From Candidatus Methanomethylophilaceae archaeon (lineage in GTDB: Archaea > Thermoplasmatota > Thermoplasmata > Methanomassiliicoccales > Methanomethylophilaceae), in assembly GCA_944320495.1 (NCBI GenBank), contig CALUHR010000013.1, forward strand, positions 256,001 through 320,000: DNA of 64,000 nt, in the 5' to 3' direction. The notes beneath the pieces are model-generated. The model did not search any database and had not been told where the DNA came from. It worked only from the letters and a program-made list of their open reading frames with translations. A program made the translations under genes and the position numbers. How positions within the stretch are numbered: the first letter of the stretch is position 1; the number at the start of each line of letters is the position of its first letter. This document shows, one piece after another, positions 1,409 to 64,000 of this stretch.

Positions 1409-2016
1409 TCCACGTCGCCGTTGGCGAGTGCGAGGTGGACATCCTGCCGGTGGTCAACGGCATCGTGTCGGAGTGCGACAGGGTGCGTGAGGCCTACGGC
1501 GGATACGAGTCGTACGCCGCATCCATGGGCATCGAGGGCATCCAGGCGATAAGGGCCAGACTCACCCTGGACGGGGACGCCGAGGTCAGCGAGCTGGACA
1601 TCGCGTACGCCCGCAGGATGATGGCCCTCACCGGCGAGGAGGTGCAGATGCCCTCTCCCGCCATGTGCACCCTTGTGGACCTTGTGACCGCCGACGGCGG
1701 CAGCGTCATCGCCCTGGACATGAACGACGAGGAGTTCACCGAGATGTACTGCGAAACTGTGCCAGCCTTCGATTTCGTGAAGGAGCACCGCCTGGCCAAG
1801 AAGGGGCTGAAGAAGCGCTTCTCGTCCGAGACCCCCGAAGGGTTCGCCCTCGAGTGGGACGCGTACGTGAACACCGTCAAGAGCTACCGCCAGGTCTCCC
1901 TGAACCGCGAGAGGCACATGGCGGACGAGATCAGGGACATAGCCAGATACCGCCGCAGCCTCCTCGCCGTCATCGAGGTCGAGCGCGCCGAGGGCGTCGC
2001 ATCACTGCTGAGGCGA
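1405..2016 (+). CDS. Hypothetical protein (203 aa, CGA-terminated)
   Basis: ATGA overlap with the upstream gene. Protein-like sequence ends ...EGVASLLR-CGA(2014-2016), 4 nt before the next ATG. In the standard code it runs on to 3078 through the shadow frame of the next gene. Confidence 0.75.
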
Positions 2017-2020
2017 TACG

Positions 2021-3064
2021 ATGGCCTGCGACATGTGCGAGGAGTCCCGCGAGGCCGGGATGAGGTTCTGCCCCCATTGCGGCCAGCCCCTGGCCGCCGA
2101 CATCGTCCCGAAGGAGGAGCCGAAGCCGTTCCTCAAGACGGTCGTCGCCTGGACCACGGCCGTGGTCATGGCGCTCCTGGCTTTCGAGACCCTGTTCCTC
2201 ATCATAGGCGCCCCGGACGTCTTCGACTGGTGCCAGTACCACTCCATGGACGTCCTGGTGCTGATCCCCAACCTGGTGACCGCGTGCACCATATCGGGGA
2301 AGGCTCTGCAGCTCGCCTGGGTCCTGATCTTCGCCGCGGCCGTCGCATCCATAGCCATGGTGATCTGGAGGACGTACCGCCAGATCTCGGACAACAGCGA
2401 CGAGCCGGACTGCATCGAGAGGACCGACGCGTACGGGATGTCCAGGCTGTTCGCCGCATCCATAGCCCTGAGCGTGATATCCAGCATCTTCCTGATGTCC
2501 TTCGGGAACGGGATCGACGTGCCGGAGGACCTCCCCGTCGGGAGCGAGTCCTCCGCCATCCTCTCGTTCACCAACGCGGCGGTGTGGGAGGAGATCATAG
2601 CCAGGGTGGCCTACATCGGCCTGCCCATGGCGGTCATCGCGGCCGTGTGCGGGAAGGGGAGGGGTTCGTTCAGGTTCCTGCTCGGAGGGTTCGGCCTCAG
2701 CAAGGCCGCCGTCGTGCTGATCGTCGTCTCCTCGCTGATCTTCGGATTCGGCCACATGAGCGGATGGGGGCTGGAGAAGGTGCTCCCGACCACCCTGTCC
2801 GGACTGATAATGGGTTACGCGTTCGTGAGGTACGGCATCCACGTGTCCATCGGGATACACTTCCTGACGGACTTCCTCGGGGTGATCGCGGGACCGGACA
2901 CGATGACGCTGGCCGCGATATTCATCATGGCCATCCTGGTGCTCGGGATCCTCTGCCTCATCGACCTGCTGATCGGTCTGAATCGCTCGCTCGACGGAGT
3001 CCGCGACCTGCCGAACTGGGTCCCCGATCGGGAGAGCAGCGCCTCGAGGCGCGACAGCGACTGA
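2021..3064 (+). CDS. CPBP-family (CAAX protease-like) intramembrane glutamic endopeptidase with N-terminal Zn ribbon
   Basis: CDMC...FCPHCG Zn ribbon; many TM segments; motifs AVWEEIIAR, IFGFGH and IGIHF; GAGG RBS at 2010. Confidence 0.88.
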   Translation: MACDMCEESREAGMRFCPHCGQPLAADIVPKEEPKPFLKTVVAWTTAVVMALLAFETLFLIIGAPDVFDWCQYHSMDVLVLIPNLVTACTISGKALQLAWVLIFAAAVASIAMVIWRTYRQISDNSDEPDCIERTDAYGMSRLFAASIALSVISSIFLMSFGNGIDVPEDLPVGSESSAILSFTNAAVWEEIIARVAYIGLPMAVIAAVCGKGRGSFRFLLGGFGLSKAAVVLIVVSSLIFGFGHMSGWGLEKVLPTTLSGLIMGYAFVRYGIHVSIGIHFLTDFLGVIAGPDTMTLAAIFIMAILVLGILCLIDLLIGLNRSLDGVRDLPNWVPDRESSASRRDSD

Positions 3065-3786
3065 ACCGCGGACTCTAGGCTCTTGGATTCGATGATCCAG
3101 TTCCCGCGGTATCCGCGAAGACGCGAGACGACGTGACCGAAGTCGATGTCCCCGTCACCTATCGTCAGATGCTCGTCCCTCTGACCGTGGTTGTCGTGGA
3201 TGTGGATGTTCACCAGCCTGTCGGCGAACCTGTCGATCATGGCGTCGACCTGCCCCGTGGTGTTGGCGTGCCCGATATCGAAGGTCACACCGAGATCGGT
3301 GCCCTCGATGAGGCTGCCGAGGCTCTCGGCGGTCCTCCCCAGGAAGAACGGGACATTCGGCATGTTCTCGATCCCCAGCCTGATGTCCCTGCCGGCGACC
3401 AGCCTGTCCAGGGCCCTGAGCGACTCCCTGGCACGCACCATGGCGCGCTCCTCAGTTCCCGGCACGGACATGGACGACAACCCGGGGTGGGCCGTGACGA
3501 CCTTGGCGCCGAGCTCCTCGGCCGCCTCGATGTTCGCCACAGTCTCCTTCAGCGAGGCCTCCCTGAGCCTGTCGCTGAGGGCGGCGATGTTCCAGTCGCA
3601 TATGGGCGAGTGGACCTGCCTGGAGAGGCCGGCGGAATCCAGGATGCCCTTGATCGCTGGCGTGTCGCGGTAGACGATGTGGTCCGCCTCCGAGAATATC
3701 TCCCACAGGCGGAAGTGCTCGGAGATCGGTCCCGCCCACTCCGCGACTGGCGTCGCGCTGAACCCGGGGCAGGACACCCCGATCAC
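3028..3786 (-). CDS. Sugar phosphate isomerase/epimerase-family TIM barrel (AP endonuclease 2 fold)
   Basis: VHSP, AHPG, LGIENMP, VTFDIGHA, NIHIHDNHG and WIIE motifs. Ends ...LEALLS-CGA(3030-3028); standard-code end 2815. Confidence 0.85.
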
Positions 3787-4172: not shown

Positions 4173-4325
4173 GACGGGCAGATGGTCGTGCGCGTACTTA
4201 TCGGCGACGGACGACGTCTACTCAATTCTGGGTTGATAATTTCACAACATATTGTATATATGGTTTTTCCAGGATATAGCCAGCGTTCCAGCAACCTTTC
4301 TATACCACCCTACTCTGGGTCGGGT

Positions 4326-7070: not shown

Positions 7071-7834
7071 CGGATCCGGCCGCGATCAGAGAGGGCATCA
7101 TCGCCTATTCGAGGGGACTCGGGGCGACGCTCGTCCGCATGTGCCCCACGGACAGATGGTCAGAGCATCCGATCCAGTCGGAGATGTTCCGTCCCAGGAG
7201 CATCTGGCCCTGGGCCGAGACGGCGATCGTCCTGGGCATCCCCCTGTTCGCTCCCATGGTCGCCACCACACCGTCCATGGTCTATCAGGAGCTGTACCAC
7301 ACGAGCAACCGCATACTGGACGACATGGGCTATCGCCTCTCGTCGCATCTGACCTCGGAGGGGTACCGCGCGATGTACTTCCCAAGGGACTGCTACTTCA
7401 GCGTCGAGGCACTGCTCGACCGTCCCGCTGCCGCGTTCTCCCATGTGCTGTCGGCGTACTACGCGGGCATGGGTACAATCGGGGACAGCCACAACCTCAT
7501 CACGAAGGAGTACGGACCGAGGGTCCGCATGGTCACCGTCCTGACGGACGCCATACCGGAGTGCGACGACATGCTCGATGAGGACCTCTGCATCCACTGC
7601 GGGAAGTGCCTGAGGGAGTGCCCGTCGAAGGCGTTCACCGACAAGGGAGAGGGCATCTACGACATGGACGCTCGCGCATGCACGGAGTACCACCTGGAGC
7701 TGAAGAGACAGCGTCACTGGCCCTGCGGGAGATGCATCGCCGTCTGCCCGGTGGGAGAGGACCTGAGGTCATATCGCGGATCGAAGATCGCCACCGACCA
7801 GGGGATCGGACATTGCAGAACGTACGGATCCCGA
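7067..7834 (+). CDS. Epoxyqueuosine reductase (QueG)-like / reductive-dehalogenase-like 4Fe-4S protein
   Basis: FSHVLSAYYAGMGTIG, YGPRVRMVTVLTD, CIHCGKCLRECP, CGRCIAVCP. Ends CGA(7832-7834) directly followed by TAA(7835-7837). Confidence 0.8.
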
Positions 7835-11996: not shown

Positions 11997-12302
11997 TTAT
12001 TCATCCTCTGATTTGTATAAGTCAACTCCAATCGCTCTCTTCACCTTCTCACGGAGATCGCTCTGATCCCCTCCGACCGGCACGACGACGGGCTGGATCG
12101 AATCCATGACCCTGTGCCTGACGGCGAAAGAGAGGTTGTCCAGATCCTTCGCGTCCACTGCGAGGATACCGATGTTGGGCTGGGACATCGCCTCCAGCAT
12201 TTTTTCCTGGTAGTTGTCTTTCTCAGCAACGAAGACGCGCCTGATACCGGCGAGCCTGAAGCCGAGCACGAACTCATCGCTGCCTATTACTGCGATCTCC
12301 AT
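11997..12302 (-). CDS. atpF: A/V-type ATP synthase subunit F
   Basis: MEIAVIGSDEFVLGFRLAGI...KVKRAIGVDL. Confidence 0.96.
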   Translation of the reverse strand: MEIAVIGSDEFVLGFRLAGIRRVFVAEKDNYQEKMLEAMSQPNIGILAVDAKDLDNLSFAVRHRVMDSIQPVVVPVGGDQSDLREKVKRAIGVDLYKSEDE

Positions 12303-13366
12303 CGGATCACCAGCAACCCTTTGATGGTGTCTGCGTCCAGTCCGCTCTCCACTCCCCTCGAGATGGTCCTGATGTTGCTGACCTCGATCTCCTTGTGGAT
12401 CATGTAGTCGATGATGGGGACCACCGACAGGGGGTACATGTGGGAGAACTTGTTCGCGGCGGCGATCTCGTACTTCTTCATCTCGGTGACGACCTCCCTG
12501 ATGCTCACCTTGTCGGATTCCACGAGTCCCTTGATGGAGTCGTAGAATTCGAGGCGGGACAGGTCGGAGGACGCGGCGGCGATGGTCTCCGCGTTGGCGA
12601 GCTGAGTCGCGTAGCGGGTGTCGATCTGCCTTCCCCCGGGGATGATGTACTTCATCACGACCTCGCCGTGGATCCCCTCCGCCTTGAGCTTGAGGATCGT
12701 CTCGAGGTTCTTGATGTCGATCTCCGTCCTGACGTAGTCCTGGAACATCCTGGTCGGCCTGGAGGTGGGGTTGATGCTCTTGACCAGCCTCACGTAGTGG
12801 GCCTTGTCCAGGTAGTCCTCGATCTCTCCCAGGTTCCCGGTCGACTTGTAGGTCGAGATGACGTCCTGGGGGATCGTGATGTGTTCCATCTTGTCGTAGT
12901 TCGCGATTATGTCTTCCACACTGTCGAGCGAGAGCAGCTTCTCCAGAGACTCGGAGTCCAGACTTCCGGCGGGGACCAGGTCCTCCCTGATTCCCTCGGG
13001 GTCAAGTCCGTACGACTTGCCGCGCAGGATGACCTTCAGGTTCCAGATGTCCCACTTCTCGAGGTACGCCTGGACCATGCCCTTGAGCTCTCCCTGGGAG
13101 GCCTGCAGGATGCTGCTGAACACCTTCGCCATGTTGGTGTAGGTGGCGTGCTCCACGAGGTCCATCCCCTCCAGCCTGCCGGCGAGGTCGGTCATCTCCT
13201 TCTGATAACCGGACTCGCTGATGTAGCGGGAGATCTCCGGGACGCTCATGAGCAGCATCTTGTTGTAGTCCTCGTCCTTGAGGAGAAGGGCCTTCTTGGC
13301 CTTCACCCTGGACACGGCATACGCGTAGTTGCCTGCCCTTCCGCTGCGGTTGAACATTGCTCTCAC
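12302..13366 (-). CDS. atpC: A/V-type ATP synthase subunit C
   Basis: GNYAYAVSRVKAKKALLL...DIWNLKVILRGK. Ends ...KGLLVI-CGA(12304-12302), overlapping the atpF ATG by 1 nt; standard-code end 12287. Confidence 0.95.
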
Positions 13367-16274: not shown

Positions 16275-16593
16275 TTAGGGTCCTCTCGAATTCATTTTTG
16301 AGAAAATCTTTGACTTCCTGCATTTTCGCCTCGGAGCCCTTGGTGAAGGTCTCGGCCTCCAGCCTGCCGGTGGCAAGCATGGACTCGCGCTTGACCTTCA
16401 GGTCGGCGGTCTCCTTGGCGATCGCGGATTCGTAAGAGCTGCGCATCTGAGCCTCAGCGTCCTGAATCTTCTTCACAGAATCCCTGCGGGATTCGGCGAT
16501 GGCGGACTTCTTGTCGGCCTCGGCCTGAGCGACCTTGGCGTCGGCATCCGCCTCCGCTTTCTTAATTTCCGAAAGTATGTCGATTCGGCTCAA
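16261..16593 (-). CDS. atpH: ATP synthase subunit H (peripheral stalk)
   Basis: First gene of the operon; ILSEIKKAEADADAKVAQAE coiled coil. TTG start 6 nt after GGAGTG (alternative GTG 16602). Codon 3 is CGA (see findings). Confidence 0.85.
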   Translation of the reverse strand: MSRIDILSEIKKAEADADAKVAQAEADKKSAIAESRRDSVKKIQDAEAQMRSSYESAIAKETADLKVKRESMLATGRLEAETFTKGSEAKMQEVKDFLKNEFERTLNVTS

Positions 16594-17254: not shown

Positions 17255-18112
17255 GTGAGCGGGGACAACAAGGGATTCATTCTGACGATTCTGGTCATAG
17301 TCATCGTGTTTGTCGGCGGATACGCCGCACTCGTAGTGTACACAGGATCCAGCGTCCCCTTCAGCTCCGTCGTCTCCGAGAGCATGCAGCACGACAACGA
17401 CAGGTCCCAGATCGGCGTCATAGACACCGGGGACATAGTCATCGTGCGCGACCCGGACAAGACCGACATCCACAGCTACGTGGAGAGCGTCGCCGACGGC
17501 TACGAGTCCTTCGGGAACTACGGATCCGTGATAATCTACAACCGCGTGGGACAGAACCCCGTCATCCACAGAGCGATGCTGTGGCTGGACTACAACGGGG
17601 ACGGAACGTGGTCAGCTCCCGACCTCGCGAACATCCAAGGAAGCTGGTACTATCAATACGAGACCGTGAACAGCGAGACCGGCGAGGTCACCGTCACGAG
17701 GGGCACTGACTACATGAACATACGCGGGGAGCTCCACTTCCTTGACCTGGACGGAAAGACCCCGTACATCGACCTGGATTCCCTCGCAGTCAAGAAGAGC
17801 GGATTCCTCACCATGGGCGACAACCACGAGACCAACCCGAACTTCGACCAGCAGTCCGGGATAGTCGACCATCTGATCTCCCATGAGGACATCAAATCGG
17901 TGGCGGTCATCGAGATTCCATGGATGGGATCCCTGAAGCTGCTCATCAACGGAAGCGACAATCTGGCACATGTGCCGAACAGCGTCCCGTCCCTGATAAT
18001 GGAGATAGTCCTCGTGTTCTCGGCGCTCATGCTCCTCGATTTCCTCACCGTGTTCAGATACAACAGGAAGAGACAGAGGAAGATCGAGCTGGTCGAGAAG
18101 TGGAAGGGACGA
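17255..18112 (+). CDS. S26 family signal peptidase I
   Basis: N-terminal TM; catalytic VVSESMQH; TGDIV, VIHRA, TMGDN; C-terminal TM. GTG 17255. Ends ...KWKG-CGA(18110-18112); standard-code end 18226 runs through an ORB and into cdc6. Confidence 0.85.
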
Positions 18113-19446: not shown

Positions 19447-19725
19447 TGAATGGGAGATATGATATAATGCTTTGGGAGACCTCAGTTTCCAGTGGAAATC
19501 CCACGACTCCGGACATCCGGTGTGGAAGTTGATTTTATAGAAGAATGCTGTACGCGGATTAAGCCCCAGGAGTGGTTAGAAAATGAAAGGATGGCTTGTC
19601 ATCGGCGCCTGTGTAGTGTGTATTCTCCTCTTCATCGGATTCCTCTACGTCGTCGGATCCTGAACTCTGAAACACACCCATACCCCTCTAGCGGTTCGCA
19701 GTGGAAATGGAGGGGTGGGTGGGTC
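19414..19725. promoter_or_regulatory. Probable replication origin (oriC) with ORB / mini-ORB elements upstream of cdc6
   Basis: gtttccagtggaaat at 19485-19499; full ORB at 19694-19725; ORB-like ttccattggaaac at 19420-19432; relatively AT-rich spacer at about 19530-19630. Confidence 0.7.
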
Positions 19726-19788
19726 CTCGTCGGTGCAGTGCTGACGCAGGACATCGACATTATATCCCAGTGCCGACAGGGACGTCCC

Positions 19789-20076
19789 ATGTCTGCACAC
19801 AGGTATGCCGCCTTGGGAATGGCAGTCGTATTGGTCGTTCTCACTCTGGTCCTGTTCTCGGACGAATCCATGCAGGAGGATCCGGACATGACCGGGATAG
19901 TGAGTGATATCAAAGAGGGAACGAACGGATATACCTTCATTCTGAACACATACGACGGAAGTGTGAGGTGCTTCTTCCGCGAGAGGCCTGCAGATCTCTC
20001 GTACTGCGGCGTCTCTGGGACCTTCTCCGACGACGGGTCCATACTCTTCGTGGAGAGATTGGTCCATTTGGATCGA
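19789..20076 (+). CDS. Small membrane-anchored hypothetical protein (possible OB fold)
   Basis: N-terminal TM followed by a beta-rich segment. Ends ...LVHLD-CGA(20074-20076); standard-code end 20094. Confidence 0.6.
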
Positions 20077-22852: not shown

Positions 22853-24100
22853 GTGGATTACTCCGTTATGAAGAGCCTCCAGTCCGTCTTCGGAGAGATA
22901 GATGCCAGCATGGAAGAGATAATCCAGACAGCCGTCGAGTTGGTCGGATATCCCGCATTGGCACCGATCAACGGAGGGACTGGCGAGGGGGCCAAGGCGG
23001 ATTACATCGTCTCCAAGCTCAGGGGGTTCGACAGCGTCGAGCGTATCGAGTTCCCCGATGTTACTGATCCTTCTGTGATGAGGCCCAACATAATCGCCAG
23101 GAAGAATGGCAAGGGCAAGGGGACCTTGTGGATAGTGTCCCATATGGATGTGGTCCCCACTGGTGACCCGGAGTTGTGGGACACTCCTCCGTTCGAAGGA
23201 GTCTACAAAGACGGTCGCATCTACGGCAGGGGGACCGAGGATAACGGACAGTCCGTCGTGGCCTCGATGTTCGCCGCCAAGCCGTTCCTGGATGAGGAGT
23301 TCGATGGGATGTCGCTTGCCTTAGCCTATGTGGCGGACGAGGAGACCTCCAGCGTCCTCGGCATACAGAGCCTCCTGGAGAAGGGTCTGTTCTCGGAGGA
23401 CGATGCGATAATGGTCCCGGACTGGGGATCCCCAGGAGGAACCATGATAGGCCTGGCGGAGAAGTCCGTCCTATGGCTGAGGTTCGTGATCGAGGGGAGG
23501 ACCACCCACGGTTCCACTCCCGAGCTCGGTGTCAACGCGTACCGCGTCTCCACTCTCCTGTTGATGGACCTGATGGAATCCCTCCCGGAGAAGTTCGGCG
23601 AGAGGGATGACCGCTTCCTGAATGGCGTGTCCACGTTCGAACCGACCAAGAGGCCAGCCACTGTCGACAACGTGAACACGATACCCGGCCACGACGAGTT
23701 CTGCATGGACATCCGCCTCCTCCCTGAATACGACCCCGATGATGTGCTGCGCGAGGCCGAGGCCATCGCGAGATGCTATGCGAGGGACACGGGCGCCGAG
23801 ATCCGTGTGGAGGTCATCCAGAAGGCCGTAGCGGGAAGACCGTCGCCAGATGACAGGGAGGAGTTCACCGCCCTGGCGGAATCCGTCGAGGAGGTAATCG
23901 GAGTGAGACCGAGAGGTGTCGGGATGAGCGGCGGCACATGTGCCAACTTCTTCAGGCTCAAGGGACTGGACGCGTATGTGTGGCAGTCGGAGGGAGGGAC
24001 CCTTCATGCGCCCAACGAATACGTGACGGTGGACCATCTGCTGACCGATGCGAAGGTGTACGCCTCGCTTATCCGCAGGATGTGCGTCACTCGTCGCCGA
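22853..24100 (+). CDS. M20 family metallohydrolase (ArgE/DapE-like)
   Basis: SHMDVVP, GRGTEDNG, DEE, HGSTP, HAPNEY. First CGA at 24098-24100; standard-code end 24136. Confidence 0.9.
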
Positions 24101-26070: not shown

Positions 26071-27300
26071 TCGGAAAAGCCTCTGTCTGCCCGCCTCCTC
26101 CGATGCGAATCCGAAATCGGCCATCTTCCTGCCTATGAGGAACACGGCGGCGAACTCGGGGACCTCCGTCTCCCCCTCCAGGGAGAAATGCTCCCCCTTC
26201 ATGTCCAGCTTCGCGGGCCTCCTCATCGTGATCTTCACAGGGTCGTCGGAGTAAGCGTCAGGCACTGCCATCTGCAGGGGGTCGAAATCCGTGAGCTGGT
26301 CCCTGGTGATGGGGGTCACGCGGAGCCCGCTCTTGCCGTGGACGGACCCGGGGAGGCGTATCAGCCTCTTGATGTCCGCCGTGACCGGCTCGTCCACCTC
26401 GCCCGAGAGTCTCGGTGCCATGTCCTCGGCCATGATCTTCACGAGGATGTTCTGGGTGGACGTGGACAGCATGGCCATGGTGTTCCTCTCGAACAGCCTG
26501 GTCCTGGCGCCCTTCAGCTCCTCCTGGGCCTTGTAGACGGTCTTGATGTCGCTGCCCTTGATGCTGGGGTACTCGCGTTTGAGCTCCTTCCCGTCCCCGT
26601 CGCAGAAGTCGTTGACGACGTCCATGAGGCCGTGGCGCATTCTCAGCCTCCATCCTCCCGCATCCGCGGGAGGGATCAGCCTGTCCTTGGCGACGTTGGT
26701 GCGCATGCCTGACCCCGTGACGACCTTGGACGTGGCGACCCTGTTGTAAGGGAAGACCCAGTCGATGTTGAGGCCGGACCCGGTGATGTAGTCCACGAGC
26801 TCGCGCCTCTCGTGCGTCCCTAGCTCCATGACGTCCGGCGTGCGGACGTGGGCGTGGTACCCCCTTCCGCCGGAGAACGTGATGTGGACCTGCTCCTCCG
26901 AGAATCCCAGGTCCCCGAGCAGGAAGGAGTCGACGAGGTTCATCATCTCCGAGCGGATCTGCCTGAGCATCTCCGCATAGGTCATGTTCGCGGCGCCCTC
27001 CAGGTGGTCGGCGTCCAGGTCGAAGATGAGCTCCGCCCCGAGCCACTCCTTCTCGTCCATGGTGGGGGCGTCCGGCTTGCGGTAGTATGACGTGGAGTAG
27101 TAGCTGTGCGCGGGGACGTTCCCCTGCATGTACCGGCGCAGCTCTTCGGGGCTGCTGAACGATAGGTGCCTCTGGACGTAGTTCCTGTCGAAGAACATGA
27201 AGCCGAACTCCCTGCGGGCGAACCTGTCTGGCACAATGGGACCGTCCGTCCGGTAGTACTTCTTGAACGCCTTGAGCATGAAGCGGGAGTTCGGGTCCAT
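26071..27300 (-). CDS. priS: DNA primase catalytic subunit
   Basis: REFGF, AELIFDLDAD, FSGGRGYH, DEPVTADIKRLIRLPGSVHGKSG. Ends ...RQRLF-CGA(26073-26071); in the standard code it runs to 25729 across rpl18a. Confidence 0.94.
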
Positions 27301-33335: not shown

Positions 33336-33862
33336 TCCCGGTCATCGTCTACGACGAGTGTCAGTGCGACCCCAAGAAGTGCACCGCGAAGCGGATGCTC
33401 AAGTTCGGCCTCGCCAAGGAGGCGAAGACCCTCGGATCGATACCACGCGGATCCGTCGTCCTCTCGCCGTTCTCCGACAGGGCGCTCTCGCCTGCGGACA
33501 TACAGCACGCGAGGCGCGGTCTGGTCGTCATGGATCTGACATGGGCGAACATCGACGGGTTCCCCAGGCTCAAGCACGCGGAGGAGAGGGCCCTGCCGTA
33601 TCTGCTCGCCTCCAACCCGATCAACTGGGGCCGTCCCATGGAGCTGAACAGCGCCGAGGCCGTGATGGCCGCTCTGTACATCCTCGGCGAGAAGGACCAG
33701 GCGGCGGAGTTCCTGGGCAGGTTCAACTGGGCCCCGGAGTTCATGAGGCTCAACGGGAACATGCTCGAGGACTACTCCAAGGCGAAGGACAGCACCGAGG
33801 TCGTGAGGATCCAGGGCGAGTATCTGGAGTCGATCGTGGGCGGTCCGGAGAACCCGGAGCGA
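33332..33862 (+). CDS. tsr3: 16S rRNA aminocarboxypropyltransferase Tsr3 (DUF367)
   Basis: QCDPKKCTAKR, VLSPFS, MDLTW, RALPYLLASNPINWG, LNSAEA. Ends ...PENPE-CGA(33860-33862); standard-code end 34003 overlaps the ferredoxin. Confidence 0.92.
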
Positions 33863-33920: not shown

Positions 33921-33929
33921 GTTGCAATC

Positions 33930-34398: not shown

Positions 34399-34635
34399 AT
34401 GAGCGGAGACGACCTTCTGAGGATGATATGGGACGCCCTCGGAGCCGATCAGGTGACCACGAAAGAGGCCACCGACAGGCTGGAGCAGGCGTTCGGCTAC
34501 AGGTGTCCGGACGACCTCGCAAAGACGTTCATGAAGTTCCGGAAGGAGGGCCTAATCAAGGGCCAGATCTCCATGGACCGCGGAGGATGGGTCTGGTGGG
34601 TCGACGACGAGTGCCGCTCCAGGAGGTCGCTCCGA
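34399..34635 (+). CDS. Small hypothetical protein (78 aa, possible winged helix) coupled to mcm
   Basis: MSGDDLLRMIWDALG...WVWWVDDECRSRRSL-CGA(34633-34635) overlapping the mcm ATG; standard-code end 34713. Confidence 0.7.
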
Positions 34636-38958: not shown

Positions 38959-39521
38959 CCAACCTCGTCACGCCGCTCACCGAGGAGACCGTCAGGTCCC
39001 TCAGGCTCGGGGACACCGTGTTCGTGAACGGGCCCATCGTCACCGGCAGGGACGAGGCGCACATCAGGGCGCTGGGGCTGAGGGCCGAGGGGAAGGAGAC
39101 CCCTCCGCAGCTGGACGGATGCGTCCTCTACCACTGCGGGCCGATCATGAGGCAGACCGAGGACGGATGGCAGGTCGTGGCGGCCGGGCCCACCACCTCC
39201 GCCAGGATGAACCGCCTCGAGCCCGAGATGATCCGCGAGTTCGGCATCAGGGCGATCATCGGGAAGGGCGGCATGTCGGCAGAGGTCGCGGAGGCCATGC
39301 GCGAGTGCGGGTGCGTCTATCTCGCGGCCACCGGCGGTGCCGCGGTGTCCCTCGCCGAGGGTCTGGGCGCCTGCACGGGCGTGGAATGGCTGGATCTCGG
39401 GATGGCCGAGGCACTCTGGAGCTTCCGCGCGGACCGTCTCGGGCCTCTGATCGTCGCGATGGACGCCGAGGGCAACAGCCTCTACGAGCAGGTCCGCGGC
39501 TCCCTGGTCAGGGACGCTCGA
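38955..39521 (+). CDS. Fe-S hydro-lyase beta subunit
   Basis: TGRDEAH, YHCGP, AGPTTSARM, IIGKGGM, PLIVAMDAEG. Ends ...LVRDA-CGA(39519-39521); standard-code end 39548. Confidence 0.92.
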
Positions 39522-43500: not shown

Positions 43501-45936
43501 TCCGAGCTGGAGATCAGCGATGACAAGGCCTACCGCTCGTCCAGGAAGCTCGAGTCCATGTACCTGGTCGCCAGGACCGAGATAACCGGGAACAACCGCT
43601 GGCTCTACTCCCGTGCCGAGTATCCGGAGACGGACCGCTCCGCGGCGATAGACCGCATAGTGCTCCGCTACCTGGAGTGCTTCGCCCCCGCCACCGTGCA
43701 GGAGGTCGCCTACGCGCTCTCGCTGGAGGATTCGGAGGCGAGGAGCTCCCTCGAGTCGCTGTGCGCCGAGGAGGAGGTCGTCAAGGGACGCTTCCTGATC
43801 TCCGAGAGCGACCAGTACATGCTGAAGATAGACCACATGCGCCTGAGGGCCGGCAAGGACAACGTGTTCGACTACGAGTCCGTGGAGCGCCACCGCCTGA
43901 CCAAGGGCGAGAGGTTCGGGTCCATCCGCGAGTACTTCGAGTTCTACGGCTCCGCCGGCAGCGAGCTGGACGTGTACCAGAGGGTGGACGGATTCAGCCT
44001 CGCAGAGTGGCAGGGCATGCGCAGGTCCGGGGAGATCCTCCTCGGCAGGTTCGTCAGGGGCAGGGTCAGATTCGTCCTCCGCGAGGACGCGGACAGGTTC
44101 GCGGCGTTCCGCCACGACGAGACCCAGCCCGGGGACGAGAGGGTGACCGAGGCGATAGGGAGGCTCGGACGTGCGACGTTCAGACAGCTCATCGCGGCCA
44201 CCGGCATGGAGAAGGACGCCCTCAAGGAGGCGGTGCTCAGGGTGGACCGCTCGCTCAAGGTCATCCGCGACTTCGACGACAGGGAGGACTGGGGTACCGA
44301 GAACACCTACGCCCTGTACGAGCCCGGGGTTCCGGAGGGGGACCCGGCGCTGGACCTGACCGAGAGGGCGATACGCGCCTACGGCCCGGTGCCGTCCGGG
44401 TCCATGAGGTTCATAACGGGGCTGTCCGCGGAGGAGACCGAGGCGGCCGCCGCCAGGATAGGCGCGGAGACCATCCTGGTGGGCGAGGGCCAGAGTCCGA
44501 TGCTCGTGATGCATGACGAGGTCCAGCTCCTGGAGCGCGTGCCCGAGCAGGAGTTCCCGGTCAGGGTGCTGTCGCTCTCCGATCCCGACATCGGGTCCAA
44601 ATGGGCCGAGATAACGTCCCGCTACGGGGACAGGCTGGTCTACCCTCTGGCCAGGGGCGACACCGTCGTCGGCGCCCTGGAGATGTGGGAGATGGCGGGG
44701 GTCATAGACATCCGCGGCATGGACATGGACTCGCCGGGGATGCTCCCGGAGGTCCTCGAGGCGGTGGACGTCATCATGGGGTTCTACAGGCAGAAGGGCA
44801 TGGAGATCGTGCGCATCCGCGAGGTCCTCGGCAAGGACGCCGCCGATCTCGACGAGGGGACGGTCGCCGTCCTCGTCTCCCACGGATACCACGAGGTCAA
44901 CGGATTCTACGCCAAGGGAAGGTTCTCCCCGTGGACCGTGCCCGGGGAGCTCCTCACGGCCCTGGCCATCAGGAGGCAGGGCGTCCCGCGCATGGACCGC
45001 CTTCCCGATGCGGCCGCGCTCCTCGAGGCTCGCGGGTACATCCGCGGGGACCAGGAGCTGCCGATCCGCGTGAGGGACCAGTCCAGCCTGAAGAAGCAGC
45101 TAGAGGGCACGGGGGCGGTGAAGACCGCGCTCCTCCCGTCGTACATGGGCTACGCCAGCCCCGCGGAGGCGTCGCTCTACCGCGCGGCCAAGTCGATCAA
45201 GCTCAGCGAGCCGGCGAAGACCGTGCTCGGCATCATACGCAAGTCCGGGGCGGCGTCGAAGAAGAGGCTTGTCATGGACTCCCCCTACTCGGACGACCTG
45301 ACCTCCGACGCCATATCGGAGCTGGTCCGCGGGACCGTCATCGGCCAGGGCGCCGATTCAATGTACGTCGAGATACCGGATTCCGGCATGGGCCGCCACG
45401 AGGCCCTCATGGAAGTAGCCCGCAGGCACTTCGCCGGTTTCGGTTCGTTCTCCGCGGACATCATTTCCGGGTTCCTCGAGTGCAGGATGCCCGAGACGCG
45501 CGCGGTGCTCGCAGACCTCGAGGACGAGGGGTTCCTCCAGAAGGGGTTCTTCGCCGAGGGCGACCCGACCCTCAGGTGGATGAGGTCCGAGGACGTCGGC
45601 AGGGAGCCCCGCGGGTTCGCCGAGGCTTTTGTCCTTAACACCCAGGACAACCTGAGCCTTTACCTCCGCGAGATGATCAAGGGCCACTGCGAGTCGGCCA
45701 GGTCCGTGGTGATGCAGGGTCCGGCCATCATCGGCTCGTTCAAGGGCAAGATTTGCCCCTCCGGCGCGAAGGTGGAGGAGTTCGAGGGCAACGACCGCGC
45801 ATCCAGGGTGATCAAGGAGACAGCCCAGGCCTGCGGCGTCAGGCTGGAGACCCAGAGGCAGCGCGAGGACGACGACTGGGACGTGTCGGAGTTCTACACG
45901 AAGCTGAACCTGGGGTCGAGGCTGGACCGCCACCGA
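40558..45936 (+). CDS. lhr: Lhr-like DEAD/DEAH helicase with a long C-terminal extension (about 1790 aa)
   Basis: PTGSGKT, DEIH, SAT, STSLELGID, QRIGRSGH, PFGRRVN. First CGA seen at 45934-45936; standard-code end 45948. Confidence 0.9.
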
Positions 45937-45988: not shown

Positions 45989-46372
45989 ATGAAGATACCG
46001 TGCGAGATCGTCGTCTGGCAGGTCCTGCCGCTCATCCGCAGGGAGCTCGCCAAGGAGCTGGTCCAGGTCCACAGGCTCTCCCAGGCCGAGGTCGCCAGGA
46101 GGTTCGGCGTGACCGATGCGGCCGTCTCGCAGTATCTGACCAAGAAGCGCGGCGGCGAGTACTCGGACAGTCCCAGCTATCCCGACTTCATCAAGGCGGT
46201 CTCCGATTCCGCGGCCGCGATCGCCAACGGCGCCGAGGTCTCCGAGGAGGTCTGCAGACTGTGCATCGTCGTCAAGCGCTGCGGCCTGCTGTCGGAGATC
46301 TACCACGAGCAGACCGGCGCGTATCCCCCGAAGTGCGCGGGCGCGTACGTCAGGGAGTCCGTCGACTCGCGA
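45989..46372 (+). CDS. Archaeal HTH transcriptional regulator (COG2522-like)
   Basis: MKIPCEIVVWQVLPLIRRELA...LSQAEVARRFGVTDAAVSQY; CGA(46370-46372) directly followed by TGA. Confidence 0.85.
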
Positions 46373-56375: not shown

Positions 56376-56534
56376 ATGGAGCCAGACAGGATCTTCATCG
56401 ACATCAAGACGTGCGACATGACCCTCTCGCAGGTCATGCTCGAGATCGCGCGCCTTCAGTCGGAGAATCCGGAGTACGAGATCTTCATGGACGGGGACCG
56501 CTACGCCATCGTGGGGCGCAGGAGGATCGGACGA
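56376..56534 (+). CDS. Small hypothetical protein (52 aa)
   Basis: MEPDRIFIDIKTCDMTLSQV...IVGRRRIG-CGA(56532-56534) overlapping the next ATG; AGGAGG RBS upstream; standard-code end is TAG 56558. Confidence 0.7.
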
Positions 56535-57076
56535 TGGGACGCGGAAGGATCACGATAGGACTCTACAACTCGTACGACCAGAACTTCAGGGAGCCCCACA
56601 GGCGCGTCATAGCCCGCGCGGGGGACCTCGCGAGGGCGTATGACATGGGCCTCGCACTCTTCGGCTTCCCGATCCCGGAGGATGCCCGCACGCCCATGCA
56701 GATCGCGGAATGGGTGGCAGGGACCACCAGCATCGGCGGCCACGGGAAGAACTTCCTGGAGATGGCGGAGTCCGGCAGGTTCAACTGCTTCCCATATCCA
56801 GGGAAGGGCTTCCCTCCCCAGCTGGGGGAGGTGGTCCTCACCACCTGCAGACCGGACCCGAAGAGGCAACTCTCGCTCGGGCAGGTGGCCGAGATGGTCG
56901 AGGGCGGCCAGAGCATCACGCTCCTGTTCGGCATAGGCCCTCACGGCGTCCCCAAGGACGTCATGAGGATCCCCCGCTACAACCTCGACATCACCCCCGG
57001 GGGCTTCTCGCTGGAGACCGCCACCGCGCTGGGGGCGGTCACCGGAGCGCTGGCATCGAGGCTCGGGATGATCTGA
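56534..57076 (+). CDS. DUF531 family protein (predicted SPOUT-like)
   Basis: MGRGRITIGLYNSYD...EPHRRVIARAG...FPPQLGEVVLTT...FGIGPHG...SLETATALG. Confidence 0.8.
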   Translation: MGRGRITIGLYNSYDQNFREPHRRVIARAGDLARAYDMGLALFGFPIPEDARTPMQIAEWVAGTTSIGGHGKNFLEMAESGRFNCFPYPGKGFPPQLGEVVLTTCRPDPKRQLSLGQVAEMVEGGQSITLLFGIGPHGVPKDVMRIPRYNLDITPGGFSLETATALGAVTGALASRLGMI

Positions 57077-57958
57077 GGACTCGAGTCTTTCCAACGAGTA
57101 GTCCAGGATCTTCTCCTTGCGGGCTGAGAGGATGGTCATGTAGAACTCCTTCTGGAGGTCCCCTATCTCCTCGCAGCTGTCAATTGTCCCATAGATGACA
57201 TCCATGTCGATTCTGGGCAGGATGCGGATCAACGCTTCGTTGCATTCGGGATTCGACAGCGATGAGATGTATTCGAAGTAATTGATCTTCTTATTGCCCA
57301 TCTGGATTGCGGAATTGGGCCAAACGAACACTCTGTTGTCGATTTCACGCGGATCGTCGAGGACCTTCCTGTAGTCCGAGACTCTCAGCTGCGGGAACAG
57401 GCACGATCCGCAGTCGAATATCGGAGCAATCGTCGCAGTCTGTCTGTCATCATCGATGAGGAATCCCCAGTTTCCGTTGTGCCTGTCGAAGTTGCCGAGG
57501 AACGCATCGCAGATGAACATGTCCCAGAAGAACGATTTCAGCACGCTGTGGTCTATCCAATGCTGTTCCATGATGGCCGCATCGATATCATCGAGCTCGG
57601 TCCCGTATCCGCTCTCGCTCGTCTGGATGCATGTGTTCTTCAGCGAACCGAAATCCGCGAATCTCAATCCGCCCTCGGTGAAATCCCTGCAGGCGACGAC
57701 AGTCTTCGACACCCCGCGATCATCGACGAATCTGCCTAGCAGGGTCTCCTGGGCGTTCACGCCCATCCCGCGAAGGACCTGGCAGCAGATATGCTCGGAT
57801 ATGCAGCTGTTGGCGTACTCTCCCTCGCCCCTCGATTTGGCCCTGGGAGGGAATTTCAGCATGTACTGGTGACCATCGTATCTGACCGAGATCTTTTGGC
57901 CGTTCGCGCCGTTGAACGTCTTGAACGGATTGCGCGGGCAATCGGTGAAATCAATCAT
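57056..57958 (-). CDS. HipA-like (HipA_C / CtkA-type) Ser/Thr kinase, copy 1
   Basis: GANGQKI, YMLKFP, SEHICC, FLGNFDRHNGNWG, APIFDCGSCL. First CGA at 57058-57056; standard-code end 56501 overlaps DUF531. Confidence 0.85.
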
Positions 57959-58400
57959 CTCCGTCACCGATCCCGAGATACTTGGCACGCAGGTATGCGG
58001 CCTGTCCTTCGCTGATTCTCCCGCAGTGGAGGTTCCAGTTGATGGATCCGTACAGTTCATCGAGGAAGCAATCCAGGTGCAGGCAGCCGTCTTCACATTC
58101 CACCAGGTCTCTGATGGCGGTCTCCAGGTCGGGAGGGAGGTTGACCTCCAGATATGATTGGTCCCTCGGAGTTCCGTTGTTGCGGGTGATGACGCCGGTC
58201 TCCAGGTCCATCACCTCCTCTACGGGCATGTCCAACGCATCGGCCAGGCGACTGACCGTCCTGGCGGAGCAGTTCTGCAGAGATGTCTTCCCCGTGCATA
58301 TGTTGGAAAGCGTGGACCACGGTATCCCACTCGTCTTGGCCAACCTGTATCTCGTCAGGCCCTTCTCGGCCATGACGTCCGACAGCGTCCTCCCGCTCAT
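57951..58400 (-). CDS. XRE HTH protein with an extra C-terminal domain (putative antitoxin)
   Basis: LTRYRLAKTSGIPWSTLSNICTG HTH; stop overlaps the kinase start (ATGATTGA). Confidence 0.82.
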   Translation of the reverse strand: MSGRTLSDVMAEKGLTRYRLAKTSGIPWSTLSNICTGKTSLQNCSARTVSRLADALDMPVEEVMDLETGVITRNNGTPRDQSYLEVNLPPDLETAIRDLVECEDGCLHLDCFLDELYGSINWNLHCGRISEGQAAYLRAKYLGIGDGDD

Positions 58401-58441
58401 GGTGATGTATCATATCACCGATATATCAGTGTGCCGACACA

Positions 58442-59350
58442 TCGTCCCTTGTGCTCGAGCAGGTCCATGGCCCTGTCGATGATGCCGGTCTTGCGGGCGT
58501 AGATCATCGTGTAGTAGAACTGGCGCTGGACCTCGGACAGGCCCGGAGTCTCCGCGATGATCCTGCCAATCTTATCCATGTTGATGCGGCCACTCATGTA
58601 GGCGAGGGCGGCGTCGCACTCCGCATTGTCGATGGAGGTGATGTAATCGTAGTAGTTGATCCTGGCGCGGTTGATCATGAGGGTGGACTTGGGGAACAGG
58701 CGTACCCTGTCGTCGATCTCGTAGGGTCTGTTCAGCACCTTCTCCATCCTGTCCTCCGTGACCTGCGGGAACAGGCACGAGCCGCAGTCGTAGACCGGGG
58801 CGATGTCCGCGTGCTTGTTGACCTCGTCCACCAGGATCCCCCAGTTGCCGTTGTGGCGGTCGAAGTTGGCCAGGAGGGCGTCCCCGATGAACTGCCTCCA
58901 GAAGAAGGACCTCAATCTGTCCGGGACGATCAGGCGCTGCTCGTCGATGGCGTTCATGATCGAGTTCAGGTCGGTGTTGTAGCCGTTGAGGTCGTCGTCG
59001 AGGCAGGTGTTCTTCAGATGCGCGAACTCGATGAGGGTCTTCCCGATATCGGCGGCGAAGTCCCTGCAGGCGACCACGTTGCTGGTGTTTCCGCTCTGGT
59101 CGGTGTAGGTGCCCAGCAGGGTCTCCTGGGCGTCCATGCCCATGGACTGGAAGACGTGGCACGCCAGGTACTCGGTGATGTGCGAGTTGACGTAGCTCAG
59201 GTCGGCAATCTTCCCGGGCTTCGGGGGGAACTTGAGCATGTAGCCGTGTCCCTGGTAGAATATGCTAATCTTGTTCCCGTTGGCTCCGCCGTATGCGCGG
59301 TAGTCGTTCCTCTCGCAGTCGCTGAAATCGATCAGGTCCATAGTCGTCAT
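58442..59350 (-). CDS. HipA-like kinase, copy 2
   Basis: GGANGNKI, YMLKFP, TEYLAC, LLANFDRHNGNWG, APVYDCGSCL. Ends ...EHKG-CGA(58444-58442); standard-code end 58415. Confidence 0.87.
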
Positions 59351-59576
59351 CTTCGTTGAAGAGATACTTCCGCCGGAGTCTGGCCGCGGCCTCGGGGGAC
59401 AGGGCTCCGCCCCATTGGTTGGCGTTTATCGCGCCGTACAGCTCCCCCCAGAGGCAGTCCAGGAGGGGCGATCCGCTCTTCAGGCCCTCGACGTACTCCT
59501 TGATGGCGAGGGCCACATCCGGGGGCAGGTCCCGTTCGGGACCCGGGGGCTCATCCCCGCGCTCAGTAGTGGTCAT
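59328..59576 (-). CDS. Small protein homologous to the C-terminal domain of the XRE protein (putative antitoxin, no HTH)
   Basis: LPPDVALAIKEYVE...LDCLWGELYGAIN...LRRKYL versus LPPDLETAIRDLVE...LDCFLDELYGSIN...LRAKYL. First CGA at 59330-59328; standard-code end is TAG 59265. Confidence 0.72.
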
Positions 59577-60630: not shown

Positions 60631-62019
60631 TCGGAGGGCCTCGCCGCCGTGCCTCATGAGCTCGAACATGCCGATCCCCGTGACCTTCCTGAACTCCCTG
60701 GTGGCGAGCCACATCATTAGGCCCCCTCCGAAGACCTCCGCCACGAGCAGGCTGTAGAATATTGCGTCCATGGACACGGTGCACGAGACCATCAGGAACG
60801 CCACGATGACCAGATTCCTGATGAGCGACGACACCATGGAGAGCTGGGCGAGGCGCAGCGACTCCAGGATAGACGATCCGATGTCGATGAGGCCCATGAA
60901 CGGTATGAGCACGGCGTATATCCTCAGGACATGGGCGAACTGGGGGCGGAGCTCCGCCATGGACTCGGACTGCGTGAGCGGCACCATGGCCCAGTCGGCG
61001 AACACGAACAGGACCGCCGCGATGCCCACCATGGCGACCATCGTTATCCTCAGAGAGTAGGCGCAGGCGTCGGCCGCCCTCCTGTGGTCGTCCTGACCCA
61101 TCGCGGCCGAGACTATGGGGATGATCGACGACCCGGTGGCCTGGGAGACCACCTCGGCCAGGGACACGAACCTCCAGGGGATGTTGTAGAGGGCGGCCCC
61201 CACGGAACCTCCGCAGATGATGACGAAGATTCTCTGGACCATGGACATGAAGCTTATGAGAGTGGTCTCGACGGTCTTGGGCACCCCCACGAACATCACG
61301 TCCCTGATCATGGCGAGGTCGAACCTGAACCCCCTGAACGACATCCTCAGGTACACCGATCCGCGGGCGAACCACCACAGTCCCACGAGCATCGACGCGA
61401 CGGTGGATATCGAAGTGGCCCAGCCGGCCCCCGCGATGCCCATGTCCAGGACGAACATGAACAGCGGGTCCAGGACGACGTTCATCACAGCGGCGACCAG
61501 GAGCATGACCGTGCTGCGCCTGGCCGCGCCCTCGGCCCTGAGTATGCCCGCTATCACGCCGTCCAGCACCAGGGGCAGGGTGCAGACCACGATGGGCACG
61601 ATGTAGTCGAGGCACAGGTCCCGGATGTCATCCGCCCCCATCATCGAGATGGACGGGCCCAGCAGGAGGTACATGACCGGCGTGAGCGCGACCGCCACGA
61701 CCGCGCTGACGGCCATGGTCTGCGACACGAGGGCGTCGGCCCTCGCCTTGTCGCCCCTGCCGAGGCATCTGGCAATCGACGTCGACGCCCCCACGCCTAT
61801 GCCGGTCCCGATGCCAGACACTATCCAGTACACCGGGGATATGGTGGAGGCCGCGGAGCTCGGGTCCACCCCGAGGAGGGAGCACCACGCGGTGTCCGCG
61901 AAGCTGTTGATCTGCACCACGAGGAACGACACTATGAGCGGACCGGACATGGCGAGGACGGCCCTCCGGGGGTCGCCGAGCATGACCTTCAGGTCCCTCG
62001 TGACCTCTGCCTCGCTCAT
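60631..62019 (-). CDS. MATE family efflux transporter
   Basis: INSFADTAW, GIGVGASTSIARCLG, NVVLDPLF, GIAGAGWATS. First CGA at 60633-60631; standard-code end 60619. Confidence 0.92.
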
Positions 62020-63349
62020 GCGACCTCTTCCCGTACTTCCCGATGCGCTCCAGCCACAGCCTCATGCCGCGCTCGTAGCCGTTGTCCGAGGGCTCGTAGA
62101 ACCTCCTGTCCACGAGCTCGTCGGGCAGGTACTGCTGGTCGGTGTAGTGGTTGGGGAAGTCGTGGGGATAGAGGTACCCGACCCCGTGGCCCAGGTCCTT
62201 GGCGTTGCCGTAGTGCGCGTCCTTCAGATGGGCGGGGACGCCGCTGGTGGGCTCGGTCCTCACGGACTCCATCGCGGACGTTATGGCGTTGATCGCCGAG
62301 TTGCTCTTGGGGGCGCACGCCACGTACGCCGCCGCCTGGGAGAGTATGATCTGGGACTCCGGCATCCCGATGCGCTCCACGGCCTCGGATGCCGACACGG
62401 CGAGGACCAGCGCCTGCGGGTCGGCGTTGCCGACGTCCTCCGCGGCGCAGATCATGATCCTGCGGGCGATGAACCGGACGTCCTCGCCGGCGTACAGCAT
62501 CCTCGCCAGATAGTACACCGCCGCGTCCGGGTCCGATCCGCGCATGCTCTTGATGAACGCGGATATCGTGTCGTAGTGGTTGTCCCCGTCGCGGTCGTAG
62601 TTGAGGATCCTGCGCTGGATGCACTCGGAGGCGACCTCCGCGGTTATGTGGACCCTGCCGTCCTCCCCCGGGAGGGTGGTCAGGGCCCCCAGCTCCAGCG
62701 CGTTCAGCGCGGCGCGGGCGTCCCCGTTGGCCATGTCGGCAAGGAACGAGACGGCGTCGTCGTCCGCGTCGACGTTCAGCCTGCCCAGCCCCCTGTCGGG
62801 GTCGGACAGCGCCCTCCTAAGAAGCTTCTCGAGGTCCTTCTGGCACAGCGGTTTCAGCTCGAATATGCGGGAGCGGGAGACCAGCGCGCGGTTGACCTCG
62901 AAGTAGGGGTTCTCCGTGGTGGCGCCGATGAGGGTCACGGTGCCGTCCTCCACGAACGGGAGCAGATAGTCCTGCTGCGCCTTGTTGAAGCGATGGATCT
63001 CGTCCACGAAGAGGATGGTCCTGCGCTCCTCCATGCCGAGGGCGTCCCTCGCCTTCTGCACGGCGTCCTCCATGTCCTTCTTGCCCGCGGTGGTGGCGTT
63101 AATCTGGACGAACCTGGAGTGGGTGGTGTTGGCGATGACCTGCGCGATCGTCGTCTTCCCGGTGCCCGGCGGGCCGTACAGGATGAGCGAGCCGATCCTG
63201 TCGGCGCGGATGGCCCTGGACAGAAGCCTGTCGGGGCCTATGATGTGCTCCTGTCCGACCACCTCGTCGAGCGTGCGCGGCCTCATGCGGCTGGCGAGCG
63301 GGGCCTCCCGCTCCAGGACGCCCCTGCGGTTGTATTCGAACAGGTCCAT
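62012..63349 (-). CDS. rarA: Replication-associated recombination protein A (RarA/MgsA)
   Basis: PLASRMRP, GPPGTGKTT, VDEIHRFNKAQQD, ATTENP, KSMRGSDPDAA, HLKDAHY. Ends ...KRSHE-CGA(62014-62012); standard-code end 61628 lies inside the MATE gene. Confidence 0.95.
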
Positions 63350-63391
63350 GTACGGTCATCGCCGATGGGTCGATATATCTGTGATGGGCGG

Positions 63392-64000
63392 TCGCTCCCA
63401 GCCGTCGCAGGGGGACCTTCTGCCCTCCAGCTCCCCGCCCGCCCTCAGGACGACCTGGCGCACCTCGTCGAGGGTCCCGCAGCGCATCGTGACCGCCCTG
63501 CGGTACTCGCGGCTGTATCTGAACCCGGACAGGAACTTCGCCGCCACGCCGCGCATCTTCGCGAGGGCGACCTCCTCCCCGAACTCGGCCTCAGTCATGT
63601 CGATGAGGCGGACGCACCATTCGGCCTGCTGCGCGGGAGTCGGGTCCGGCGGAACCTCCCCTCCGGCGAGGGCCTCGGCGACCTGGGTCACGAGGAAGGG
63701 ATTCCCCACGCCTCCGCGGGAGACCATGACTGCTCCTGCTCCCGTGATGCGCATCGCCTCCACGGCGTCCTCCGCCGTGCGGATGTCCCCGGAGACGATC
63801 AGCGGCACCGGGAGCTCCTCCCCGTAGCCCGCCATGTCCCCGTGCCTGGCGCATCCCGCGTAGCGCTGGTCCGCGGTGCGCGTGTGCACGGTGACGGCGT
63901 CCGCCCCCGCCCTCACGCACTCATCGACCACCCTGCGGAAGTTCACGGTGTGCGCGTCCAGGCCGAGGCGGGTCTTGGCGGTCACCGGCACGCCGACTGA
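63392..64000 (-). CDS. dus: tRNA-dihydrouridine synthase (5' truncated by window edge)
   Basis: VPVTAKTRLG, VTVHTRT, IVSGDI, VMVSRGGVGNPF. First CGA at 63394-63392; standard-code end 63356. Confidence 0.9.

Follow-up and report, generated by a model that had tools for sequence, protein, structure and literature searches.

Within a 64,000-nucleotide stretch of DNA from a Candidatus Methanomethylophilaceae archaeon (assembly GCA_944320495.1, contig CALUHR010000013.1, positions 256,001 to 320,000; hereafter the window, meaning the whole of that stretch), many genes appear to end where the reading frame meets CGA, ordinarily an arginine codon. We propose that the genus to which this organism belongs probably reads CGA mainly as a termination signal, and that the likeliest agent is its single archaeal release factor, aRF1, outcompeting a weakened tRNA-Arg(UCG). 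We also favor, with rather less assurance, a broader formulation in which a clade of gut methanogens would use CGA as a fourth stop codon through aRF1, the weakened tRNA-Arg(UCG) would be kept for a few conserved CGA codons, and the one in the aRF1 gene itself would serve as feedback. An initial annotation of the window had suggested that CGA behaves as a terminator, and comparison with other genomes supports this: relatives have TGA at CGA sites, CGA is nearly absent from gene interiors, and the effect is not driven by guanine plus cytosine (G+C) content.

The source genome (G000; the window is G000:C13:256001-320000) comprises 1.77 Mb in 14 contigs with 62% G+C, about 0.85 at third codon positions, and at 90.6% completeness is probably a metagenome-assembled genome (MAG). 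Genes were called with our own heuristic, a codon log-odds model combined with maximal-scoring segments, in which CGA was scored as neutral and hence introduces no bias; the exact-alignment orthology counts are independent of this caller. In-frame CGA lies near the end of coding potential, ahead of any standard stop, in 312 of 1,420 genes (22%), and the offset of this first CGA from the coding-potential end has the same distribution as that of true stops in the remaining 1,108 genes. In 237 long-tailed genes, more than 15 codons separate the end of coding potential from the standard stop; the codon that directly follows that end is CGA in 59 of them, with the runner-up codon at 11. CGA is the most frequent CGN triplet off-frame (34.6 per 1,000), and this 3.5%, set against 59 of 237 directly after coding potential, excludes a chance origin of the pattern. 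The stop set initially proposed, TGA, TAA and CGA, holds as regards the terminal position of CGA and fails as regards TAG: under a four-stop reading the terminators are TGA (1,038), CGA (312), TAA (47) and TAG, which still closes 17 of about 1,414 genes. The order to which this organism belongs is known to decode TAG as pyrrolysine. We note that such rare closure by TAG would fit a TAG-decoding order.

Alignment of gene ends to orthologs, as the initial annotation had recommended, was carried out against 1.16 Mb of sequence from a congener, G004, and found CGA enriched at the stop position and nearly absent internally. This comparison yielded 717 gene pairs, 577 of which aligned to within 5 codons of the G004 stop. 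Opposite that stop, G000 has a standard stop in 352 pairs, has already passed its own stop in 77, and has some other codon in 148. CGA leads these 148 with 27 occurrences (binomial P = 2e-12 against its off-frame frequency), followed by GAC (12) and GAG (10), while the one-step neighbors of TGA other than CGA stay at background (GGA 3, AGA 2, TCA 2 and TGG 1), which indicates that it is not stop loss itself that is tolerated, only the change to CGA. Reciprocally, nine CGAs in G004 lie opposite G000 stops, and 77 of 917 G004 genes (8.4%) have a terminal CGA. When CGA is read as a stop, G000 genes that exceed their G004 ortholog by more than 15 codons drop in number from 42 to 2. The same terminal CGAs are retained across species, in independent assemblies.

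Inside genes, CGA has almost vanished. Among 221,466 ortholog-aligned internal codons of G000 there are 16 CGAs, most of them in segments that overrun a terminal CGA; about three are genuine, and all three are also CGA in G004. This is far from the ordinary frequency at conserved arginine positions that would speak against a terminating codon. Our earlier figure of 0.33 CGA per 1,000 internal codons was too high because standard-code open reading frames (ORFs) had taken in untranslated tails, and the ortholog-aligned count supersedes it. The first genuine case lies between a NifH-like gene and a NifD-like gene downstream in the same frame, and is probably itself a terminator. We observe that in this CfbC/CfbD-like pair (G000:C5:79781-81901) the CGA and 16 poorly conserved codons stand between the two genes, which translation table 11 would fuse into one 706-aa protein. 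The second lies at the junction of GmhA-like and GmhB-like domains encoded in one frame (G000:C13:193618-194670); the GmhB-like domain has no available start codon, making this CGA a candidate for programmed partial termination that would give two products. The third is a conserved arginine codon of aRF1. To these can be added codon 3 of atpH in the window (16585..16587, minus strand), directly after a TTG or ATG start behind a GGGGAG box. Initially listed as the one exception to the rule, it is a real one: the codon is CGA in seven of ten genus members and CGG in the other three, and CGG in those relatives suggests that CGA is read there as arginine. The conserved sense CGAs of aRF1, atpH and the GmhA/GmhB linker suggest that CGA has a dual meaning, mostly stop and rarely arginine, and has not been cleanly reassigned; comparison across genomes points to sense at aRF1 and atpH codon 3 and to stop at 312 gene ends.

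Depletion of CGA proceeds through graded stages across the family. Among mid-gene codons, CGA occurs at 4.05 per 1,000 in G041 (genus g20, 50% G+C; 260 of 64,192 codons), 1.13 per 1,000 in G032 (g11, 49% G+C), 0.13 per 1,000 in G037 (g16, 44.5% G+C) and 0.02 per 1,000 in G036 (g15, 48% G+C; 1 of 66,171 codons), where AGA stands at 15 per 1,000. Six CGAs fall within the last 15 codons of 282 ORFs in G036. Bias in G+C at third positions was considered as a cause of the depletion and is ruled out, the depletion being equally strong at the 48% G+C of G036. The second subclade of the source genus and genera g10, g12, g17, g18, g23 and g27 were covered at most by their aRF1 or tRNA loci.

The initial annotation had offered loss or weakness of tRNA-Arg(UCG) as part of the mechanism. 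Loss is ruled out, as the gene is found in all 17 genomes examined, G000 (which has all five arginine tRNAs) among them; the tRNA is, however, altered in the source genus. There, position 31:39 of the anticodon stem is unpaired, and in G000 and G018 positions 32 and 38 are U and C in place of the C and A of relatives. In G008 and G015, of the second subclade (L269:1400-1700 and L272:1400-1700), the anticodon loop reads CCUCGAC, with C33 and A37. We observe in these two that C replaces the normally invariant U33 and that the anticodon stem is mismatched at its top. The tRNA-Arg(UCG) genes of G036, G032 and G041 have ordinary five-pair anticodon stems. The loss of the cognate tRNA that would be expected of a sense-to-stop reassignment is absent here: the tRNA is altered, and not obviously dead.

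A second, specialized aRF1 was sought in G000 and not found; the genome holds one aRF1 (L176:1495-2724) and one Pelota. The comparison of aRF1 motifs proposed at the outset did not separate the genomes, NIKS and YxCxxxF being the same in those that avoid CGA and those that use it. The residue after the tyrosine of YxCxxxF, at the position of yeast L123, is arginine (YRCDS) in all aRF1 sequences aligned or checked there. At the position of human R68, methionine is found in g1, g10, g11, g13, g15 and g16, and arginine, lysine, leucine or glutamine elsewhere. The glycine of the GTS loop (human eRF1 G31) is serine in G000 and G018 only, and glycine in all other relatives. We note that in these two genomes the serine-type aRF1 co-occurs with the U32/C38 form of tRNA-Arg(UCG), and that none of the genomes measured exceeds G000 in its share of CGA-ended genes. 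A side observation concerns Pelota (G000:C1:21853-22080), whose open frame extends over 858 codons in G000 and 777 in G018, as against about 350 in most relatives, and which seems to have no nearby standard stop in those two genomes.

The aRF1 gene itself carries a CGA. In 23 of 24 genus members it has just one, 20 codons downstream of NIKS at the position of human R81, while the synonymous sites that flank it vary; three g13 genomes also have a CGA 20 codons after NIKS. The single CGA lies instead 33 codons before NIKS in G005, five of five g15 genomes, the two g11 genomes examined and one g13 genome, and aRF1 genes of outgroups have from zero to four CGAs, scattered. Bacterial RF2 is autoregulated through an in-frame UGA of its gene, prfB, which is rescued by a +1 frameshift. 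As in prfB, we find in a release-factor gene, early in the frame, one conserved codon on which the factor would terminate, and this suggests RF2-like feedback. The parallel is incomplete, in that no shift site is apparent and rescue would here be plain decoding by tRNA-Arg(UCG), the feedback being deduced from conservation only. Under such a loop, abundant aRF1 would terminate at its own CGA, and when aRF1 is scarce tRNA-Arg(UCG) would read through; this would also account for the retention of the tRNA.

Terminal CGAs are followed by T 58% of the time, and TGA stops 29% of the time. Part of this excess comes from overlap with the next start codon (CGATG, 22%), and part from convergent genes that meet tail to tail, since CGATCG ends both genes in CGA; one such pair is conserved in G004. 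Convergent genes often abut without a spacer as YGA|TCR (for example at 46362-46372 in the window), and 36 terminal CGAs are of the CGATCG kind. A longer conserved motif after terminal CGAs was sought and none was found. The base that follows the conserved non-terminal CGAs is C in aRF1, A in atpH and G in the GmhA/GmhB linker. Tails beyond the terminal CGA exceed 50 codons in 30% of cases and meet a standard stop within 10 codons in 37%.

Among the three mechanisms envisaged in the initial annotation, relaxed aRF1 specificity together with a weak tRNA-Arg(UCG) appears to be the best fit. We posit that aRF1, and not a rescue pathway, would free the peptide at CGA, that the base after CGA may tune the outcome, and that G+C pressure may have turned TGA stops into CGA at rates differing by species (22% of genes in G000, 8% in G004). 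Several points weigh against this proposal. G000 and each of the 16 other genomes examined have a gene for tRNA-Arg(UCG). In the genomes compared, NIKS and YxCxxxF of aRF1 offer no clear determinant of relaxed first-base recognition. The next standard stop is closer after CGA than after TGA (median 20.5 versus 30 codons, P = 7e-4), and these earlier stops suggest some read-through, or leakiness, at CGA terminators. CGA appears to be read as arginine at a few conserved sites, namely aRF1, atpH codon 3 and probably the GmhA/GmhB linker. Finally, all of the support is comparative.

A different account, which we consider unlikely, would make CGA an unassigned or "hungry" codon, at which a scarce or poor tRNA-Arg(UCG) leaves the ribosome stalled until splitting by aPelota/ABCE1 and hydrolysis of the peptidyl-tRNA free the protein. 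The unpaired 31:39 of the genus, the U32/C38 of G000 and G018 and the C33/A37 of G008 and G015 would suit it, as would the unchanged decoding motifs of aRF1, and near-total avoidance within genes is equally to be expected of a stalling codon. CGG in Mycoplasma capricolum, reportedly described by Oba et al. in 1991, has been named as a precedent for an unassigned codon, and the bacterium Micrococcus luteus is said to have left AGA and AUA unassigned. There too a codon of the arginine box has been expelled from coding sequences; by contrast, such bacterial codons have no cognate tRNA and no use at gene ends and go with extreme G+C bias, and here the depletion holds at 48% G+C. Nor does CGA look like a member of that class, its tRNA being present and the codon being enriched at gene ends and conserved at special sites. 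Stalling and rescue would moreover be a slow and costly way to finish a fifth of all genes, priS and atpC included; the single conserved CGA of aRF1 is most readily understood if the factor itself acts on that codon; the bias toward T behind terminal CGAs is reminiscent of a four-base stop signal; and yeast eRF1 does act on CGA (PMC7379694).

Still less probable, in our judgment, is that CGA means arginine everywhere, and that losses of TGA to CGA are tolerated, the proteins simply being extended to the next standard stop. A tRNA-Arg(UCG) gene exists, the CGA at atpH codon 3 appears to be sense, and the 37% of tails that stop within 10 codons would make many such extensions short. These facts sit poorly with a replacement of TGA by CGA only (27 cases, against TGG 1, GGA 3, AGA 2 and TCA 2), and with the 30% of tails longer than 50 codons, which pass through other genes, either antisense to them or out of frame. 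Coding potential goes no further than the CGA, different species retain the same terminal CGA, and gene interiors avoid the codon even at 48% G+C.

The C-to-U editing of mRNA that would turn terminal CGA into UGA is also very hard to credit: nothing speaks for it directly, and while it would explain the persistence of tRNA-Arg(UCG), it would have to leave the CGAs in aRF1 and atpH untouched and offers no explanation of the avoidance of CGA in genes. Editing of mRNA from C to U is not known to occur in archaea. An error of assembly or base calling, conceivable in a 14-contig probable MAG of 90.6% completeness, can practically be dismissed, as the same CGAs appear in independent assemblies of other species and the effect is confined to one codon in one frame.

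To our knowledge, sense-to-stop changes are known from organelles only, with mitochondrial examples in AGA and AGG of vertebrates (NCBI table 2), TCA of Scenedesmus (table 22) and TTA of thraustochytrids (table 23). The likeness to CGA is close, in that the former sense codon is gone from gene interiors and marks ends where homologs have standard stops; the difference is that organellar genomes are tiny and have lost the cognate tRNA, whereas here the genome is cellular, of 1.8 Mb, the tRNA is kept, hundreds of genes are involved and some sense use would remain. The code had initially been called undescribed, and our literature search likewise found no CGA stop code described for any free-living organism, nor any description of CGA as a stop in a cellular genome beyond speculation in a 2026 preprint. 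That preprint reports two archaeal assemblies from hydrothermal vents in which CGG encodes tryptophan and domains lack CGA (Melnykov 2026, bioRxiv 10.64898/2026.04.02.715157). Its author does raise CGA as a stop in an archaeon; this is speculation, made with a method that cannot infer stops, and the vent genomes differ in lacking tRNA-Arg(UCG) and in having about 50% G+C. A biochemical parallel exists in Saccharomyces cerevisiae, where eRF1/eRF3 releases peptide at CGA in competition with a poor tRNA-Arg, and where the UGA-biased eRF1 variants L123F, L123R and L123Y release more strongly at CGA (Wada and Ito 2018, PMC7379694). The archaeal factor belongs to the same family, and its arginine aligns with L123 (compare L123R); in yeast, however, release at CGA is a weak side reaction seen in reporters, while G000 seems to rely on CGA for about 22% of its genes. 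Codons that are both stop and sense depending on context are found in Condylostoma, Parduczia and Blastocrithidia (PMC4967479). These share with CGA two meanings, set by cognate tRNA versus release factor, and in Blastocrithidia the tRNA has a shortened anticodon stem; the direction is opposite, as stops there became frequent sense codons and here a sense codon would have become mostly a stop, nearly absent internally.

Returning to the window, its 53 overlapping gene calls include 51 that lie wholly inside, of which 16 reach CGA ahead of the first standard stop. Each of the 21 CGAs initially listed as ending a gene is indeed an in-frame CGA of the gene named (minus-strand sites are named by the position of the C of CGA, a convention we keep). 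The claim that the genes read by eye have no internal CGA extends to the whole set, with no earlier CGA past codon 10 in the 51 complete genes (18,430 codons); lhr, mcm, gyrA/B and atpA/B, the long genes left unchecked, have now been counted with the same result. Between these CGAs and the next standard stop lie 1 to 354 open codons (the long tails being 354, 185, 128, 114, 71, 47 and 38), and the downstream sequence is rich in Arg, Pro and Ser, as off-frame sequence is. In AtpC, Tsr3, RarA, the C-terminal subunit of fumarase, the M20 peptidase and the AP_endonuc_2 protein, no more than about 12 residues separate the end of the Pfam domain from the CGA, and sites 2014, 3030, 12304 and 26073 align exactly with a TGA of G004.

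Site 2014 (2014..2016, plus strand) ends an unnamed 203-aa gene (1405-2013) and is followed by 354 open codons, with the next gene starting from 2021 in another frame. The gene ends in AGG CGA in G000 and G018 and in AGG TGA in G004 and G016, and six further relatives stop within 4 codons of the site. Fusion by a +1 frameshift to the zinc-ribbon gene at 2021, which the frames would allow, is ruled out, relatives having a stop and two separate genes. At site 3030 (3028..3030, minus strand), 71 codons remain open after the end of a gene for an AP_endonuc_2 protein, a xylose-isomerase-like TIM barrel, whose Pfam domain ends at residue 246 of 252. The CGA at 12302..12304 (minus strand) ends atpC, where the vATP-synt_AC39 match runs to residue 346 of 351, and that at 26071..26073 (minus strand) ends priS, the small subunit of DNA primase, with 114 open codons after it. 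For the M20 peptidase (24098..24100, plus strand) the Pfam match runs to residue 406 of 413 and the G004 stop lies 5 codons on; for tsr3 (33860..33862, plus strand) the CGA is the first codon past coding potential, with 47 open codons after it, and Ribo_biogen_C is matched in full by residue 165 of 176. At 39519..39521 (plus strand) lies the end of the gene for the fumarase C-terminal subunit, in which Fumerase_C reaches residue 179 of 188 (position 204 of 205 in the profile). The 1,791-codon frame of an lhr-like helicase contains a sole CGA, at 45934..45936 (plus strand), 3 codons past the end of its coding potential.

Other sites carry less information individually. Sites 7832 (7832..7834, plus strand), at the end of a 4Fe-4S protein gene, and 46370 (46370..46372, plus strand), at the end of a 126-aa gene, are uninformative alone, as a standard stop (TAA and TGA, respectively) directly follows the CGA. 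Convergent with the latter, an OGG1-like glycosylase gene ends at 46362..46364 (minus strand) with a stop 4 codons on. The CGA at 18110..18112 (plus strand) ends an unnamed gene (17255-18109) with 38 open codons after it and the G004 stop one codon off. Support is weak at three sites: 20074..20076 (plus strand), near the end of unnamed gene 19492-20073, where a stop follows 6 codons on and the G004 ortholog continues; 34633..34635 (plus strand), near the end of unnamed gene 33922-34632, with 26 open codons after it and no Pfam match; and 63392..63394 (minus strand), near the end of a gene that leaves the window, where relatives are too divergent.

Between 56243 and 59576, four genes end in CGA. 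A 96-aa gene ends at 56532..56534 (plus strand) in a CGATG whose last three letters form the start codon of the next gene; TGA stands here in two relatives, and CGA in three other species besides G000, making four. Two HipA_C-like kinase genes follow, ending at 57056..57058 (minus strand; 185 open codons after it), where the sole relative with a homolog ends in TGA a few codons earlier, and at 58442..58444 (minus strand), where TGA is the aligned codon in the relative L092. An 82-aa gene ends at 59328..59330 (minus strand), 21 open codons preceding the next stop, and L092 has TGA exactly there. We note that the two kinase genes (57059-57967 and 58445-59353, both minus strand) are paralogous, lie amid small ORFs and are arranged in a toxin-antitoxin-like manner. 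A MATE transporter gene ends at 60631..60633 (minus strand), the first codon past coding potential; in relatives the stop lies about 5 codons or less from the aligned position, or farther upstream. The gene rarA ends at 62012..62014 (minus strand), 5 nt past the start codon (ATG) of the following gene and with 128 open codons after it; MgsA_C is complete at residue 437 of 446, and seven relatives end in TGA within about 6 codons. RarA (62015-63352, minus strand) is 67-72% identical to that of Lachnospiraceae and other Clostridia, which make up most of the best 80 loci, and this suggests that rarA was acquired from gut Firmicutes. A copy 86% identical lies on contig L087, labeled as a Lachnospiraceae MAG, which may be mis-binned archaeal DNA.

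If CGA does terminate translation in these archaea, about one-fifth of gene models made with table 11 would be wrong, being over-long, fused or running antisense through their neighbors, and databases of gut and rumen methanogens would be affected; programs such as Codetta and KACI are blind to a sense-to-stop change because they infer amino-acid meanings only. The proposal, if true, would give cellular genomes their first sense-to-stop change and archaea their first case of RF2-like autoregulation, and the conserved CGA of aRF1 would then be a directly testable feedback circuit. The stages of the change would be visible within one family, from 4.1 through 1.1 and 0.13 to 0.02 CGA per 1,000 codons, and then to 8% and 22% of genes ended by CGA. 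A free-living lineage would thus have acquired an additional stop codon without giving up the cognate tRNA, which would make it a live intermediate of codon capture, graded across neighboring genera.

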